From Okamejei kenojei (Eukaryota), in contig CM069154.1 in assembly GCA_035221665.1 (NCBI GenBank), forward strand, positions 20,522,001-20,586,000: a DNA stretch of 64,000 nt, written 5' to 3'. Within the stretch, counting starts at the first letter, position 1; the number at the start of each line of letters is the position of its first letter. The translations under genes were made by a program, and so were the position numbers. Below the pieces are notes generated by a model, which searched no databases, was not told where the DNA came from, and was given only the letters and a program-made list of their open reading frames with translations. This document shows positions 3,835 through 64,000 of the stretch, piece after piece.

Positions 3835-4386
3835 CATACCGCATTTGGAGTATTGTGAGCAGTATTGGGCCCCAAATCTGAGGAAGTATGTGCTAGCATT
3901 GGAGAGGGTCCAGAGGAGGTTTATGAGAATGATTCCAGGAACGATTGGTTTAGCATATGATGAGCGTATGACGGAACTGGACCAGTACTTGCTGGAATTT
4001 AGCACAGTAAGGGGGACCTCATTGAAACTGATAGGCCTGGATAGAGAAGATGTGGAGAGATGATGTATCCACTCATGGATGAATCTAGGACCAGAGACCA
4101 TTGCCTCAGAATAGAAGGACGTACCTTTAGGAAGGAGATGATGATGAATTTCTTCAGTCAGAGGGTGATGGATCTGTGGAATTCATTGCCCAGAAGGCTG
4201 AGGCTGTCAATTGAGATATTTAAGGCACAGATTGATAGATTCTCAATTAGTACGGGTGTCATGGGGTTATGGGGAGAAAGCAGGACAATGGGTTTGAGAG
4301 GGAAAGATAGATCAGCCATGATTGAATGGTGGAGTAGACGATGGGCCTAATTGCCTAGTTTTGCTCCTATCACTTATGAACTATGA
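3835..4386 (+). mobile_element. CR1 LINE 3' fragment inserted into the inverted SLAM intron copy
   Basis: PHLEYCEQYWAP...LERVQRRF...NFFSQRV..LWNSLP and CR1 3' UTR; its flanks join to match gene B intron 2 (~55960-55990, reverse complement). Confidence 0.85.
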
Positions 4387-4800
4387 ACACTATCCCAGTC
4401 TGGGTCTGTGCCCATCACAGTCCCAGGGCTGCTGCTATTGGCAGGTTCAGGGCCGTTCTGAGCTGGGTCACGCTCAGGTGTATAAGGGACACGGGGGCCA
4501 ATGACAGGATGATAAAAGACATGGAACTGGAGAGAATTCCCAGGGTACAGGTCCACAAGCAGGACATGGTGGAGAGTTTGTGGATGAGTGCGGGCAGTGG
4601 TCGGGAAGGGGGCGCAGCACACATGTGGACTTCTTTCAACTGGCTGAACTGAAGGTGGATGGATGAGTTAAACTGGTGGGTGGAAATGAGCTGGGATCAG
4701 CCGAACATTCACTCGTCGCTGTTGGAGACGGGTTGTTGGGTATCAAGAGGTCCACAAGGATCTCCTTTACTCATCTTTCTTCTCTCTACACCAACCTCAG

Positions 4801-5035
4801 AGCCCGTGGCAGAAACACAGACCAGGCCTCAGAACATCGCCAAGGTTTGCAACTTCACCCTGACCTGCTCCATGACCTAAACCAACCCCACCAGCTTCAG
4901 TTGGTGGAGGAGAGGAGAAGCTTTGGGAACCAACAGCACCCATCACCACCGGGGACATGGAGTGACAGCAGAGGTTCATCACCCAGCAGAGATCAGGGAC
5001 ATTGCGTACAGGTGTGAGGCCAGGAATCCCGGTCA
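4801..5035 (+). pseudogene. Inverted, truncated IgC2 pseudo-exon of the CD2/SLAM cluster
   Basis: Acceptor ccaacctcag|ag; reads EPVAETQTRPQNIAKVCNFTLTCSMT*TNPTSFSWWRRGEALGTNSTHHHRGHGVTAEVHHPAEIRDIAYRCEARNPG; in-frame TAA at 4878-4880; homology lost after NPG. Confidence 0.9.
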
Positions 5036-6129
5036 CTCGGCCGATGCTGGTAATTTCCACCTCCAGCTCCAGCCAGTTTGTGAGAGTGTGGCTCAGGTTG
5101 ATTCCCAGATGGATGAAAAAAAAACCAGAAAATGCTACTCAGCAGATAGGGCAGCGTCTGTGTAGAAATAGTTTTATGTGTGACCTTTCATCAGGCATTG
5201 CATCTCCAGGTGTCCTGAAACCCCTGAGGAACTATCATCAGCCTGTCCATTGGGGGGGGGGGGGGGGGCAAGCAGCTTGAGACCATCCAATTGTTCTGGG
5301 CGGCGCTTTGCACGTACTCCCAGATAAATTTGTGCACGTCCTCACTAGACAAATATGGAGATAACAGCTTATGATGGGAGTTATCGAGTTCCCAGCTTCC
5401 TCCAGATGAGGGCCAGAGGAGCCATCGCCACCAGCAGCTCAGCAAACTGCTTAGAGGAGCCTCTTCTGTTTTACAGTGAGCAGAAGGGGGTTGAAGTGCA
5501 ATCCAAATTATGCAGGATCACATGTGTGTCTTGGGACACTTCATGCTGAAGGTCTTTCAGCGTACTCTGCTTCTCTTTGTATGTCTGCTTCAGGGCAGGT
5601 ACCAGATAGTTAAATACACATCGGACCTCAGTTGAGCATATCCATTTTGAGGCATTCGATTTTGGATTTCTGCCTCTTGCTCGACCCTTCATTTACTCCC
5701 GACCAAAGAGACGGATGCAAGTCTCGCCCATGTCCCACCACAGCCTTCTTCCTGCTACCTTCCCCCATCAGCCCTGAACCGAAGGAACAAATCCTGGAAT
5801 CACTCATCTGGTTATTAAAGTTCTAGTACACAGAATCGTTCTACTTAGCGGAATGAGTCCTACCTGCACCAGGTAACGGCCTGAACACACACCAGCTTCA
5901 TGGCGACACCAAGTATCAGGAGATTCACGAGTGCAGCACATTCTGATGGTCGGTCTGAGAGCCTGCTCCGACAGATCTTCAGCTGTAGGTGAGGGTCCTG
6001 GAGTCAAGGTGGAGTGTTCACCAGATATCCACCAAGTTAAATGAACTAAGAAATGTCCTTGATTTATCCACCAACACTGGTCTGAGTTCAGGATGAATTG
6101 ATTCCCATTCTTTCAAGAAAACAAATGCT

Positions 6130-44970: not shown

Positions 44971-45189
44971 CTATAAAGGGTGGGATTTTCCATGGGCTCG
45001 TCCTCTACCCTTGATTGAGGCAAAGTGTGGGATCCCAGAATAATTCACTGTTTCATACTCTTGGATCATGCTCTCGCTGGGGTTTCTGTGCCCTCCTCTT
45101 TTGGCTGGTCCAGAAACTGGCGTCACAGGAGATTTCACTGTGTCATATATGGTGCAAGGAATTTCCAGCCTCTCCTTGTTCTGAGCCTG
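44971..45189 (-). CDS. Gene B terminal cytoplasmic exon with ITSM
   Basis: Acceptor CTCTCTCTGCTTTCTCAG|CAG (NAGNAG); phase 0; QAQNKERLEIPCTIYDTVKSPVTP...MIQEYETVNYSGIPHF...SHPL*; TIYDTV at 45136-45153. Confidence 0.85.
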   Translation of the reverse strand, partial: QAQNKERLEIPCTIYDTVKSPVTPVSGPAKRGGHRNPSESMIQEYETVNYSGIPHFASIKGRGRAHGKSHPL

Positions 45190-45679
45190 CTGAGAAAGCA
45201 GAGAGAGTTCAGATGATTAGAGTTTATAAATTATGAGAGCCTTAGATAAGACAGGCCGTCAGAACCTTTCTCCCAGGGTGGAAATGTTAAAGATTAGAGG
45301 GCATAACTTTAAGGTTAGCCGACTCAAGTGTTTAATTGTCATATGTATTGAAAACAGAAGAATGAAATTCTTATTTGGAAGGGCAGATTTTAAAGGAGAT
45401 GTGCGGGACAATTATTTTACTCAGCGATGCTGGGTGCCAGTAATGCCCCAACAGGCGTGGTGGTGGAGACTGATCTATAGTGGCATTTAAGAGGCTTTTG
45501 GACAAGCACATAATTATGGAGGGATGTGGATAACATTCAAGCAGAGAAGATTAGTTTAACGTGGCGGCATGTTCAGTGTTGATATTGTGGGCTGCAGGGA
45601 GCTTGTTTCTATATGCACTGTTCTATATTATCCTTAGTCACCTATTGTTTGGGCAAATTCATGAAGGTGCAAACACTAA

Positions 45680-45840
45680 CTAGGTGTGTGGGGGTACACA
45701 GTGTACCCCAGTAACTGGGTGTGTGAGGTCAATGTACCCCAGTAACTGTGTGTTGAGACAGGGTACCCCAGTGACTGGGTGTGTGGAGACAGTCTACCCC
45801 AGTCACTGGGGATTGGGGGGGGGCAGTGTATTACCAGTGA
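45680..45840. repeat. ~30-bp minisatellite
   Basis: Repeating (c)agggtaccccagt(a/g)actgggtgtgtg... Confidence 0.7.
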
Positions 45841-46141
45841 GAGTGGAGATGGGTGAAGCGGCATCTCCTGTCAAACCTGAAGTGAATGTTGCTGAGATAA
45901 TTTTCAGTTTGATCGGGAGTTTTTTCATTGAGTGCTTGGGATATTTTTGTGCCTTTTCATTGCTTTGAACTGTGGCAGAGTTCGGTGAGAGCTTACTCAG
46001 CTGTGATTTCTAGTTCAGTGTGAGGTTGTGTTGTGCCTATATGGGATTCTGTGTCCTGCCTGCTGCAGAGATAGTAAGGATGGCCCCAGAGAACTGAGGG
46101 GTTCAGATCGCTCATCCCTGAGGCAATATGTGTCCCTTTAC

Positions 46142-46230
46142 CATCTCGTTCTCCTCCCGAGGCTGCCTGTTGTCTGGATGTCTCTGTGGTGGATGGGGTT
46201 GTGCGTAGATAGTCTCTATGGTTGAATGGT
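46142..46230 (-). CDS. Gene B cytoplasmic exon with ITSM-like TIYAQP
   Basis: Acceptor CTTCTTACTCTCCCCCACAG, donor ATG|GTAAAG; 89 nt, phase 1 to 0; DHSTIETIYAQPHPPQRHPDNRQPREENEM. Confidence 0.8.
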
Positions 46231-46680: not shown

Positions 46681-46818
46681 CTCCAGTGACTAGAGCATTT
46701 TCACCGCCTCCTGTTCTTCTCCCTACGAAGATGCAGACCAGCAAAATGATGAGTACAGCTGCAGAAGCCGCAACAACCGAAATAATTATAATTATATTCC
46801 CTGTTGGTCCCCTTTGTC
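46681..46818 (-). CDS. Gene B transmembrane exon
   Basis: Acceptor TTCTCTGTTGTTTTAG; GQRGPTGNIIIIISVVAASAAVLIILLVCIFVGRRTGG...; donor AG|GCAAGT after 46681, or GT alternative ending at 46705; both phase 1. Confidence 0.85.
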
Positions 46819-49436: not shown

Positions 49437-50429
49437 CTTCTTCTCCTTCTTCTTGTAGGATTCCGGCAGTGTAGACGCTGCTAAGCGTATTACTGCCCTC
49501 CACAGGTCAAAGTTTGAACTAGATTCTTACATACAGCCCTGTAACATGCAGGAATTGAAGAACAGCCCTGGACATCAGTTGATGTTTCTCACTGTGCCCA
49601 AACAAAGATAAAACAGAAAAAGCCTCAACTCCAAGTCCTGTCAGTCTAACAAACAATACCTTTCTTTCTACCCTATACTTTTTACATTCTAGGAAAACAT
49701 GCTTAACTGTCTCATTACTCCCACATTCACACAAGCCAGAAACATGTTTCCCCACAATGCACAAATAGTAATTTAACCTACAGTGTCCCAACCTCAATCT
49801 ACACAGTTTAACTGAGTCCCTATGGGACAGAGATGTACAGACATATTTTCCTAACTTCAGATTGTATAGAAAAGTAGTGTCTACCCCTGACTTCCTTTTC
49901 CCATCCTCTCTGTCATTCTTTTGTTAAGCCCTCTTTAATTATTTCTCTCAGTTCCACTCTCACCAATGATACATGGATATCTATTTCTCTTCTTAAACTC
50001 TCCTTTGCTATGAGGTCCACCTGCTCATTCCCCCTCACCCCAGCATGCCCGGGAACCCAGCAAAAAGTGATGTTACACGCAAACCCAATTCTAGAAAACA
50101 CAATCAAGATTTCATTTAGAATGTCAGGACGAGCTTTAGATTTCCCTACTCTTAAAATTTCAAGAGCAGCTGCAGAATCAGAACAGATAATGACTTCTCT
50201 AAAACTGGCTTCCTCAATCCACCATAGAGCCCATTGAATTGCCATTAATTCAGTCGTGAGAACAGAGCTTCCATCAGAAATGCGTTGGCCAATCTTCAAC
50301 CCAAGCTGCTCCAAATACACTCCAAACCCAGCTCTCCCACTAACTGGATCTTTAGATCCATCTGTAAATACAATCAAAGTGCTCTCACTGATTGAATTAA
50401 GAATGGGAATAACGCCGCCAGATCGCTAA
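49437..50429 (-). mobile_element. 5'-truncated RNase H-encoding LINE (I/Nimb clade) inserted into the DIRS RT
   Basis: VFTDGSKDP...ELMAI...ICSDS...WVPGHAGVRGNEQVD; RLRLGH...CECG..ETVKHVFLEC zinc knuckle; (GAA)n tail; 12-bp TSD ggacgacatttt / ggatgacatttt. Confidence 0.9.
50403..50428 (-). other. 26-nt probable 18S rRNA fragment at the LINE 5' junction
   Basis: TAGCGATCTGGCGGCGTTATTCCCAT matches the vertebrate 18S segment recalled as (T)AGCGATCCGGCGGCGTTATTCCCATGACCC with one CpG-type mismatch (from memory, not searched). Confidence 0.7.
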
Positions 50430-55194: not shown

Positions 55195-55476
55195 CAGGTG
55201 TGGCCTGTTTGCAGTCGTCCGTCAGCAGGATCTGTGCCGTGCCCTCACTGACCGGGTTCCTGGCCTCACATTTGTACTCAACGTCCCCGACCCCTGCTGT
55301 GAGATGAACCTCTATCGTCTCTCCGTGTCGCAGGGGGTGATGGGTGCTGTCGTTTCCCAGAGCTTCTCCTCCCCTCCACCACCTGAAGCTGGTGGAGTCG
55401 CCAGAGGTCACGGAACAGGTCAGGTTGCAGATCCCGGTGATGGTCTGAATCTTAATCTGTGTTCCTGCCACGGGCT
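55195..55476 (-). CDS. Gene B IgC2 exon
   Basis: 282 nt, phase 1-1; EPVAGTQIKIQTITGICNLTC...YKCEARNPVS...DDCKQATP; ~72% aa identity to gene A C2 by manual count. Confidence 0.92.
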
Positions 55477-61396: not shown

Positions 61397-61714
61397 CGTA
61401 CACCTCCAGTCGGAATCTCGCCGGAGTTTTTTCTCCTGAACTTGTAATAACAAGCACCTCATAATCACCAGTGTCCTCTCTCCGTAGATCACGGATTTCC
61501 AGACTGAAGTTCCCGCGGTGAAGAGTTACCCGTCCCGTGTAATTGGTGTTCCAGTAATAAATATTCTCATCCATGTACTTCGCTATCCTGGTTCTGGGTG
61601 ATTTCCGGCTCCACTCAACCATGGCAACGTCCGGTGTGACTGTGACCCCAGCAGGTAAGGAGACCGAGTGTCCCCGAGCTCCGGTCACGGTGCCAGTGGC
61701 GGCCCCGGTCCCAG
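61397..61714 (-). CDS. Gene B IgV exon lacking the canonical disulfide; leader exon lies beyond the window end
   Basis: 318 nt, phase 1-1; VTGARGHSVSL...VEWSRK...NFSLEIRDLRREDTGDYEV...RLEVY; flanking introns align with gene A. Confidence 0.93.
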
Positions 61715-62239: not shown

Positions 62240-64000
62240 GAGGGGACACAAAAGGCTGGAGAAACTCAGCGGGTGCAACAGCATCTAAGGAGCGAAGGAG
62301 ATAGGCGACGTTCCGGGTCGAGACCCTTCTTCAGACTGGTCAGGGATCAGGGAAACGAGAGATATAGACGGTGATGTGGGGAGATAAAGAACAATGAATG
62401 AAAGATATGCAAAAAAGTATCGATGATAAAGGAAACAAGCCATTGTAAGCTGTTTGTGGTGTGAAAATGAGAAGCTAGTGCGACTAGGGTGGGGGAGAGA
62501 TAGAGAGAGAGGGAATGCCAGGGCCCGAGGGCTGAGGGAGAGGTGGGAAGGGGAGGAGACAGCAAGGGTTAACAGAATTGAGAAAATTCAATGTTCAAGC
62601 CCAGAGGATGCAGACTCCCCAAGTGGAATATGAGGTGCTGTTCCTCCAACTTGCGGTGTTGCTCACTCTGGCCGTGGAGGAGGCCCAGGACTGAGAGGTC
62701 GGATACAGAATGGGAGGGGGAGTTGAAGTGCTGAGCCATCGGGAGGTCGGGTTGGTTATTGCGGACTGAGCGGAGGTGTTCGGCGAAACGATCGCCAAGC
62801 CTCCGCTTGGTCTCACCGATATAGATCATCTGGCATCTGGAGCAGTGGATGCAGTAGATGAGGTTGGAAGAGGTGCAGGTGGCGAAACTGGCGAAGGACT
62901 ATGTGTTGTATTTGACAGCTGGTGGGGTGAAAGGTGAGGACCAGGGGGACTCTGCCCTTGTTGCGAGTGGGGGAATGGGGAGAGAGGGCAGTGTTGCGGG
63001 GTATGGAGGAGACCCTGGTGCAAGCCTCATCTATAGTGGGGGAGGGGAATCCCCGTTCTCTGAAGAATGAGGACATTTGTGATGACCTGGTGTGGAACAC
63101 CTCATCCTGGGAGCAGATGTGGCGTAGACGGAAGAATTGGGAATAGGGGATGGAGTCCTTACAGGAAGCAGGGTGGGAGGAAGAGTAGTCCAGGTAGCTG
63201 TGGGAGTCAGTTGGTTTGTAGTGGATGTCGGTCAGGAGTGTATCACCTGCAATAGAGATGGTGAGGTCAAGGAATGGTAGGGAAAAGTCGGAAATGGTCC
63301 ATGTGTATTTGAGTGCCGGATGGAAGTTGGTGGTGAAATGGATGAAGTCAGTCAGTTGTGTGTGGGTGCAGGAGTGACACCAAAGCAGTCGTCGATGTAA
63401 CGGAGGTAGAGGTCGGGGATGGGGCCCTGGTACGCCGAGAACAAGGATTGTTCGACGTACCCGACAAAGAGGCAAGCGTAGCTGGGACCCATGCGTGTGC
63501 CCATAGCTACGCCTTGTGTTTGGAGGAAATGGGAGGAGTCAAAAGAGAAGTTATTGAGGGTAAGGACCAATTCCACTAGGCGGAGGAGGGTGTCAGTGGA
63601 CGGGTATGGGTTGCTCCTCTGGTCGAGGAAGAACCGGAGGGTTTTGAGACCGTCCTGGTGGGGGATGGAGGTGTAGAGTGACTGGACATCCATGGTAAAG
63701 ATGACAGGATGGGGGCCTGGAGAATGGAATGCGCGGAGCCGACGGAGAGTGTCTGAGGTGTCTTGAACATAGGTGGGGAGGGATTTAACAAAGGGGGATA
63801 GGATGGAGTCAAGGTATGTGGAAATGTGTTCGGTGGGGCACAAACAGGCAGAGACTATGGGTCTGCTGGGGCAGTCGGGTTTGTGGATTTTGGGGAGAAG
63901 GTAAAATCGGGCCGTGCGGGGCTGGGAAACGATGAGGTTGGAGGCTCGGGAGGGTGGGGAGCCGGAGTTGATGAAGTTGGTTATGATGCTCGAGATGGTA
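62240..64000 (-). mobile_element. Penelope-like retroelement (RT plus GIY-YIG), running off the window end
   Basis: FTMDVQSLYTSIP, QTQGVAMGTRMGPSYA, YLRYIDD, YIGETKRRLGDRFAEHL; 3' ctgaagaagggtctcgacccg motif also seen in many short copies. Confidence 0.92.

Follow-up and report, generated by a model that had tools for sequence, protein, structure and literature searches.

Organization of the gene

In the window analysed here, that is the whole stretch of 64,000 nucleotides from Okamejei kenojei, five minus-strand exons join in the order IgV-IgC2-TM-cyt1-cyt2 into an open frame of 346 codons with zero internal stops, and the gene composed by them is called gene A in the following. Its introns measure 5,920, 8,376, 450 and 955 nt, the third being GC-AG and the others GT-AG. 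The features are as follows, where P0001 and P0002 denote the related proteins of Amblyraja radiata and Rhinoraja longicauda, and the long-tail rows are those of the tail alignment described below.

61397..61714, minus strand: IgV exon of gene A, phase 1-1, no cysteines, AG/GT bounds; Pfam V-set E 1.8e-11, Receptor_2B4 E 4.9e-4
55195..55476, minus strand: IgC2 exon of gene A, phase 1-1, four cysteines; 83% identity to Amblyraja P0001
47400..52887, plus strand: presumed DIRS-like retroelement with 23-nt inverted termini; RVT_1 E 3e-13, weak Phage_integrase E 0.007
46681..46818, minus strand: TM exon of gene A with a hydrophobic stretch, with its GC donor, in phase 1, opening the 450-nt GC-AG intron
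46142..46230, minus strand: cytoplasmic exon 1 (cyt1), phase 1 to 0, length 89 nt; shares 23 of its 30 residues with P0001 and P0002 alike
46196..46213, minus strand: motif 1, TIYAQP, a former ITSM, with proline at pY+3
44971..45189, minus strand: cytoplasmic exon 2 (cyt2), to the TAG stop at 44971; 67 of 71 residues identical to P0001
45136..45153, minus strand: motif 2, TIYDTV, canonical ITSM; TxYxxV in 8 of 8 long-tail rows
45046..45063, minus strand: motif 3, QEYETV (YETV at 45046-45057), YxxV; all 8 long-tail rows have the Tyr
45031..45048, minus strand: motif 4, VNYSGI; ITIM consensus in 5 of 8 long-tail rows, Tyr in 6 of 8

With the splice sites scored by a simple consensus count of our own making, the GC donor of the TM exon (GAG/GCAAGT) agrees with six of seven consensus positions, which is the highest value for any scored donor in the interval from the TM exon to 46231 and is attained by 15 of the 2,813 GC dinucleotides on the minus strand. 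By pyrimidine content the cyt1 acceptor ranks first among the 68 YAG sites in 46660-44900, where both tandem cyt2 acceptors are tied second; the donor after cyt1 (ATG/GTAAAG) scores below 5/7 and was placed by homology. The cyt2 exon starts at a CAG/CAG tandem acceptor and the frame is kept with either site: that at 45186 fits the Amblyraja protein, and that at 45189 would give an extra Gln seen in the Rhinoraja protein. Moreover, the junction residues of the TM exon agree with P0001 and P0002. When the GC donor is read through, a stop is met eight codons into the intron (46680-46654, minus strand), and the short end so produced is identical to the annotated C-terminus of the Rhinoraja paralog P0023; this could mean either a genuine short isoform or a GC-AG intron wrongly annotated. 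Within the TM exon an in-frame alternative GT donor, near 46702, has a score below 4/7 and would preserve the frame anyway. Additional exons between IgC2 and TM are unnecessary, as P0001 joins the two directly, and tblastn of 52 relatives over this interval gave nothing apart from C2 exon bins.

The sequence-only reading had proposed two small phase-compatible exons for the tail, and this is borne out by the frame, with the TM exon ending in phase 1, cyt1 running from phase 1 to 0 and cyt2 following in frame. It had also regarded the tail as missed by the ORF track, but the stop-to-stop ORF list at 80 aa does include the last exon (44971-45216). As judged from their sequence, the two minus-strand tail exons complete an IgV-IgC2-TM-tail gene of the CD2/SLAM family. 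For the leader exon of gene A the 64-kb window offers short chance-level matches only, and this exon probably lies beyond base 64000. At the other end, four AATAAA signals are located at 44346-44228 (minus strand), 625-745 nt past the stop and inside a LINE remnant of opposite orientation or at its end; the group is a possible 3' end of the gene A transcript. The retroelement sits in the 8,376-nt IgC2-TM intron as a passenger and is no part of the receptor. We take it to be a DIRS-like tyrosine-recombinase retroelement, and an RNase H-bearing fragment in the opposite orientation breaks up its RT region at about 49500-50425.

Assignment to the CD2/SLAM family

As predicted from sequence and a structural model, gene A is a type I leukocyte receptor belonging to the CD2/SLAM family, with a tail ordinary for the SLAM family. 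An IgV domain without the canonical disulfide is a feature of the SLAM definition as given in PMC12084948, and the N-terminal IgV domain of gene A scores above the Pfam cut-off for V-set and contains zero cysteines. The membrane-proximal C2 domain has four cysteines, which presumably form two disulfides, in a pattern found in 33 of the 52 relatives; the Pfam Ig matches of this exon fall under the curated cut-offs. Regarding a type I membrane protein with signal peptide, the TM exon is present and the leader exon was not found within the window. Moreover the gene belongs to a tandem cluster, in which the same strand also carries another intact V-C2-TM gene (17317-9422) and, near 690, a third leader-like exon.

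The fold was compared by the AlphaFold model of P0001, whose mean pLDDT is 62.5, with 70-90 in the Ig blocks and below 50 in the tail. Foldseek gave CD2, CD48, CD2, NTB-A, NTB-A and CD58 at ranks 1-6, and VIA-align gave CD48 (Z 17.8, rmsd 3.5, 179 aligned) and CD58 (Z 16.8, rmsd 3.1, 171), with CD166 tied (Z 16.7). The nearest clusters of the ESM Atlas among the matches listed are named SLAM, CD244, SLAMF6, Ly-9 (0.95-0.97) or Ig-like, and the ectodomain fold, as modelled for P0001, is closest to CD2/CD48/CD58/SLAM structures.

A CEACAM1-like inhibitory receptor, with IgV-IgC2, ITIM and ITSM, might be supposed here instead of a SLAM receptor. In fact the C2 exon alone has its best PDB match in CEACAM1 (E 7.6e-6, against E 0.098 for SLAMF6), CEACAM1 is second in the profile search, and CEACAM1 with ITIM/ITSM is reported in PMC13278318 from cartilaginous fish upward. 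However, the C2 domain has four cysteines, Foldseek puts CEACAM1b 35th, after CD2, CD48, NTB-A and CD58, no CEACAM appears among the 10 ESM Atlas matches listed, and the TIYAQVQ of P0002 and of the Pristis pectinata protein P0032 equals human SLAM over seven residues (PMC8204385). With the C2 domain alone favouring CEACAM1, while the whole ectodomain and the Atlas favour CD2/SLAM, we find a CEACAM1-like identity scarcely credible and keep the CD2/SLAM assignment.

Neighbours in the cluster

The intact paralog (17317-9422, minus strand) encodes 268 aa with a leader, IgV, IgC2, a hydrophobic segment and a tyrosine-free tail of about 16 residues. In the leader, Ig and last exons it is 77-88% identical to Rhinoraja P0049, and it resembles SLAMF8/9 or CD48/CD58-type partners; it could be a ligand for gene A. 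The leader-like exon at about 690-640 (minus strand) is homologous to that of the paralog and shows ATGAGT instead of the expected donor GTGAGT. It probably starts the third gene of the cluster, and may be broken. There is also an inverted copy of the IgC2 exon with its upstream intron at 4380-5140 (plus strand), which is about 80% identical to that of gene A and is a pseudo-exon by its in-frame stop. In white shark, slamf genes are mapped to the MHC region in a figure legend of PMC10751288.

Tyrosine motifs of the tail

The tail of gene A has about 115 residues and four tyrosines. Translation of the minus strand reproduces the TIYAQP, TIYDTV and distal YETV of the sequence-only reading at 46196-46213, 45136-45153 and the last exon, and adds VNYSGI as the fourth tyrosine, which was absent there. 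Its view of TIYDTV as a canonical ITSM agrees with the consensus and with the conservation of TxYxxV in all eight long-tail rows; by this motif the tail has at least one TxYxxV/I, as in SLAM receptors proper. Motif 1 departs from the ITSM consensus of V or I at pY+3 by a proline (codon CCC), and the remark that it differs from the SLAMF1 motif at this position only is right, since human SLAM does carry TIYAQV (PMC3514216, PMC8204385). By consensus gene A has one ITSM, and P0002 and P0032 have two, a number usual in mammals and not required.

As for the distal pair, YETV was ruled out as an ITSM or ITIM by the Gln at -2. Without the Thr, QEYETV resembles mouse CRACC ADYDTI, which did not bind EAT-2 (PMC3958483); it would more probably serve phosphatases, other SH2 proteins or YxxΦ endocytosis. 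Motif 4 fits the ITIM consensus (S/I/V/L)xYxx(I/V/L) given in PMC12151841, a pattern common by chance with 232 matches in six frames. Right after motif 1, at 46195-46178 (minus strand), the window has PHPPQR, which is like a class II SH3 ligand, is absent in P0001, P0002 and P0032, and may be a chance pattern.

The number of motifs was compared with 30 first-order Markov simulations. In the six frames of the window TxYxx[VI] occurs 19 times against 15.0 expected (range 9-27) and TxYxxP 7 times against 9.5, and the counts, being not above chance, were rejected as evidence. The motifs are judged real because of their exon context and conservation.

Conservation and origin of the proline

The search with the last exon yielded 2 proteins among 14 candidates, namely P0001 of Amblyraja radiata (94%) and P0002 of Rhinoraja longicauda (84%), and that with the IgV exon 52 proteins among 2,161 candidates, 51 of them with ray or skate names. 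P0001 is the best full-length match to gene A, with 81% over 345 residues; the best-conserved portion is the last exon, and a two-residue C2 deletion is common to the window and Amblyraja. A tail-only search with Pristis P0032 gave, among 40 candidates, the self-match only, and no shark orthologs were gained. In the TM exon (46818-46681, minus strand), one of five exons tested, nine amino-acid changes are unique to the window and two to Amblyraja (uncorrected p=0.065); the window's changes include the loss of basic residues adjoining the membrane.

The tail alignment comprises the window and 24 tyrosine-tailed relatives, drawn from the 52 proteins of the last-exon and IgV-exon searches and 22 further close matches; the selection excluded proteins with a short tail or none, as well as near-duplicate isoforms, and 8 aligned rows have the full-length tail. 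The tyrosine of motif 1 is present in 24 of the 25 rows. At pY+3, proline is found only in the window and Amblyraja P0001, and the other 23 rows have V (14), I (4), L (4) and A (1), thus an aliphatic V/I/L in 22 of 23, with TIYAQV kept in Rhinoraja (P0002) and Pristis (P0032). All eight long-tail rows have TxYxxV as motif 2, and pY-1 is I or V in each. Motif 1 is off consensus in the window and P0001 (Pro) and in P0065 (Ala), and motif 2 in none of these eight. The comparison across related species, which had been suggested as a check, divides the two motifs: TIYDTV is well conserved, whereas TIYAQP is limited to the window and Amblyraja.

In the tail tree (22 rows, midpoint root), which covers close cartilaginous-fish-type relatives and leaves the position of P0065 without resolution, the window and Amblyraja group together (97/89), the valine-bearing Rhinoraja is sister to them (97/98), and Pristis and the remaining rows are aliphatic at pY+3, P0065 excepted. 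Valine is thus ancestral and proline derived with a single origin, by which the two skates count as one event; the ancestral batoid receptor would have had two ITSMs, and the alanine of P0065 is likely independent of the proline change. An assembly error or a species-specific change was ruled out for the proline, as Amblyraja carries it too. The change from Val to Pro needs two nucleotide substitutions, with Ala or Leu as intermediates. With 7 differences among 30, the retention of all six residues of TIYAQP between the window and Amblyraja does not exceed chance (p=0.17).

Signalling and the meaning of the proline

SAP prefers TIYxxV/I/L/T and recruits Fyn (PMC12084948). TIYDTV fits this preference, and SAP-type switch signalling via this predicted ITSM is a reasonable inference by analogy. 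As in mammalian SLAM, engagement of the IgV domain would cluster the receptor and Src-family kinases would phosphorylate the tail. TIYDTV would then act as a switch, bound by SAP/EAT-2-type adaptors with activation via Fyn when these are present, and by SHP-1/SHP-2/SHIP when they are absent; phosphatases are described as binding SLAM tails when adaptors are scarce (PMC12084948). YETV and the ITIM-like VNYSGI, 30 and 35 residues downstream of TIYDTV, could be a second site for tandem-SH2 phosphatases, and the tandem SH2 domains of SHP-2 bound paired ITSMs about ten times better than a single one (PMC3958483). A consensus match does not imply binding, because human CRACC ITSM1 is bound by neither SAP nor EAT-2 (PMC3958483). 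The SAP/SHP signalling machinery appears to exist in sharks, the evidence being from sharks: sh2d1a-like is expressed in T cells of bamboo shark, where it marks a subset (PMC11372145), Slamf6 marks Tfh-like cells in nurse shark (PMC10529500), and the motif-binding residues of SHP-2 are conserved across jawed vertebrates (PMC12151841).

In the lineage of the window skate and Amblyraja, motif 1 seems to have lost its aliphatic anchor at pY+3, and the likeliest effect would be a weaker binding of SAP/SHP at this motif, tolerated because motif 2 remains. A degenerate site has a parallel in human SLAM, where TIYVAA sits between two canonical ITSMs (PMC8204385). On these analogies gene A is probably, though by a modest lean, a standard SLAM-type switch receptor acting via TIYDTV, with its first site weakened and no new dominant partner. 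Against it, the V/I/L at pY+3 in 22 of 23 relatives implies that the site is normally constrained, the change from Val to Pro needs two substitutions, and T-I-Y-A-Q is intact in both proline-bearing species, with a new core that is a known Crk SH2 ligand. The sequence-only reading had suggested that the V-to-P change may retune SH2 specificity; the change does prove to be derived and common to Amblyraja, but a simple weakening of a redundant site fits at least equally well.

The stretch ETIYAQP resembles the optimal Abl substrate peptide, and the proline could have turned motif 1 into a YxxP site of Abl type, with Crk/CrkL, Abl, RasGAP or Nck docking there and a direct SAP-independent output beside the ITSM switch. 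In fact pYAQP is the CrkII Y221 motif (PMC2689226), a +3 proline plays a central part in Crk binding (PMC13151057), and the Crk SH2 domain requires Leu or Pro at +3 (PMC3514216), by which a V-L-P path becomes possible; the similar Dok1 peptide pYAEP bound RasGAP, Abl1, Nck1 and Vav1 on arrays (PMC3514216), and the proline is kept in two skates. However, YxxP is not sufficient, as Crk binds FGFR1 pYELP with a KD of 44 uM and Dok1 pYELP with 23.7 uM, and its preference D-x-pY-D-[V/L]-P-P is contradicted at -2, +1 and +2 by the T, A and Q of TIYAQP, which shares only the core pY-x-x-P (PMC3514216). Crk is not among the pYAEP binders listed (PMC3514216). Moreover, the YxxP site of gene A is a single one and not an array, the retention of TIYAQP has p=0.17, there is one origin in two species, and P0065 lost the same pY+3 anchor to Ala. 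Such a retuning, though plausible, appears rather unlikely to us, and slightly more doubtful still is the fuller claim that, in the skate lineage to which Amblyraja also belongs, two substitution steps made a functional pYAQP docking site of Abl/Crk/RasGAP type out of an ancient TIYAQV switch motif, which sawfish and human SLAM have in identical form. If true, it would couple SLAM directly to YxxP readers with the SAP switch and ITIM kept, a natural rewiring of SH2 specificity by one residue.

The proline might also have changed nothing of consequence, SAP still binding motif 1 via the pY and the N-terminal T-I, and the receptor behaving as a two-site SLAM. The three-pronged binding of SAP uses residues N-terminal to the tyrosine (PMC7337045, PMC3134462) and may, by analogy, preserve some affinity for motif 1, where T(-2) and I(-1) are intact; in CD229 ITSM1 a change at pY-1 shifted SAP affinity only two-fold (PMC4610628). 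However, the SAP consensus ends in V/I (PMC3134462, PMC12084948) and 22 of the 23 other relatives have an aliphatic residue at +3, and we hold this to be distinctly unlikely. Less probable again is that the tail is little used, either with the GC donor often read through to leave a short tail with one tyrosine, or with the gene decaying after the retroelement insertion. The GC donor of the third intron, the annotation of the Rhinoraja paralog P0023 with the same read-through ending, the window-unique changes of the TM exon described above and the 5.5-kb element in the intron upstream of the TM exon might suggest it, but the five exons contain no stop or frameshift, the last exon is the best conserved of the gene with 94% identity to Amblyraja, and the GC donor is otherwise near-consensus. 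The switch receptor with a weakened first site is thus the reading that we carry into the comparison below.

Comparison with known systems

The type of gene A and the tail of its Amblyraja radiata ortholog are already in public annotations, and an analysis of skate or ray SLAM tails was not found in the literature searched, which took in few subscription journals. What is added is the presence of the SLAM switch-motif tail in rays and skates, down to the sequence TIYAQV, and a natural pair, TIYAQV (Rhinoraja, Pristis) and TIYAQP (the window skate, Amblyraja), as a cheap comparison for a one-residue shift of SH2 specificity. The importance is modest, as motif turnover in SLAM tails has precedent, and the case would become notable only if the proline site proves to recruit a new partner.

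The closest system is the Amblyraja 'SLAM family member 5-like isoform X2' (P0001), which shares with gene A the architecture, the exon junction residues and all four tyrosine motifs including TIYAQP; the identity is 81% overall and 94% in the last exon, but only 76% in IgV and 69% in the TM exon, and its name is an automatic label that does not establish orthology to mammalian CD84. The Rhinoraja 'Ly-9-like' (P0002) and Pristis 'SLAM family member 5-like' (P0032) proteins have the same four-tyrosine tail with motifs 2-4 conserved, but differ from gene A in a canonical TIYAQV as motif 1, hence two ITSMs. Human SLAMF1/CD150 (also CD229 ITSM1 and CD244) resembles gene A in the IgV-C2-TM layout and the membrane-proximal TIYAQ core, and SLAMF1/CD150 also in having several tail tyrosines with one degenerate, whereas gene A differs from SLAMF1/CD150 by proline for valine at pY+3 of motif 1 and by the distal YETV/VNYSGI pair; the ectodomain of gene A, via the P0001 model, is about 20-25% identical to CD2-family structures. 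Finally, the autoinhibitory motif pYAQP at CrkII Y221 has a four-residue core identical to motif 1, but it binds within the same molecule, whereas the site of gene A is one in a receptor tail with ITSM-type flanks, and the identity of the two is convergent.
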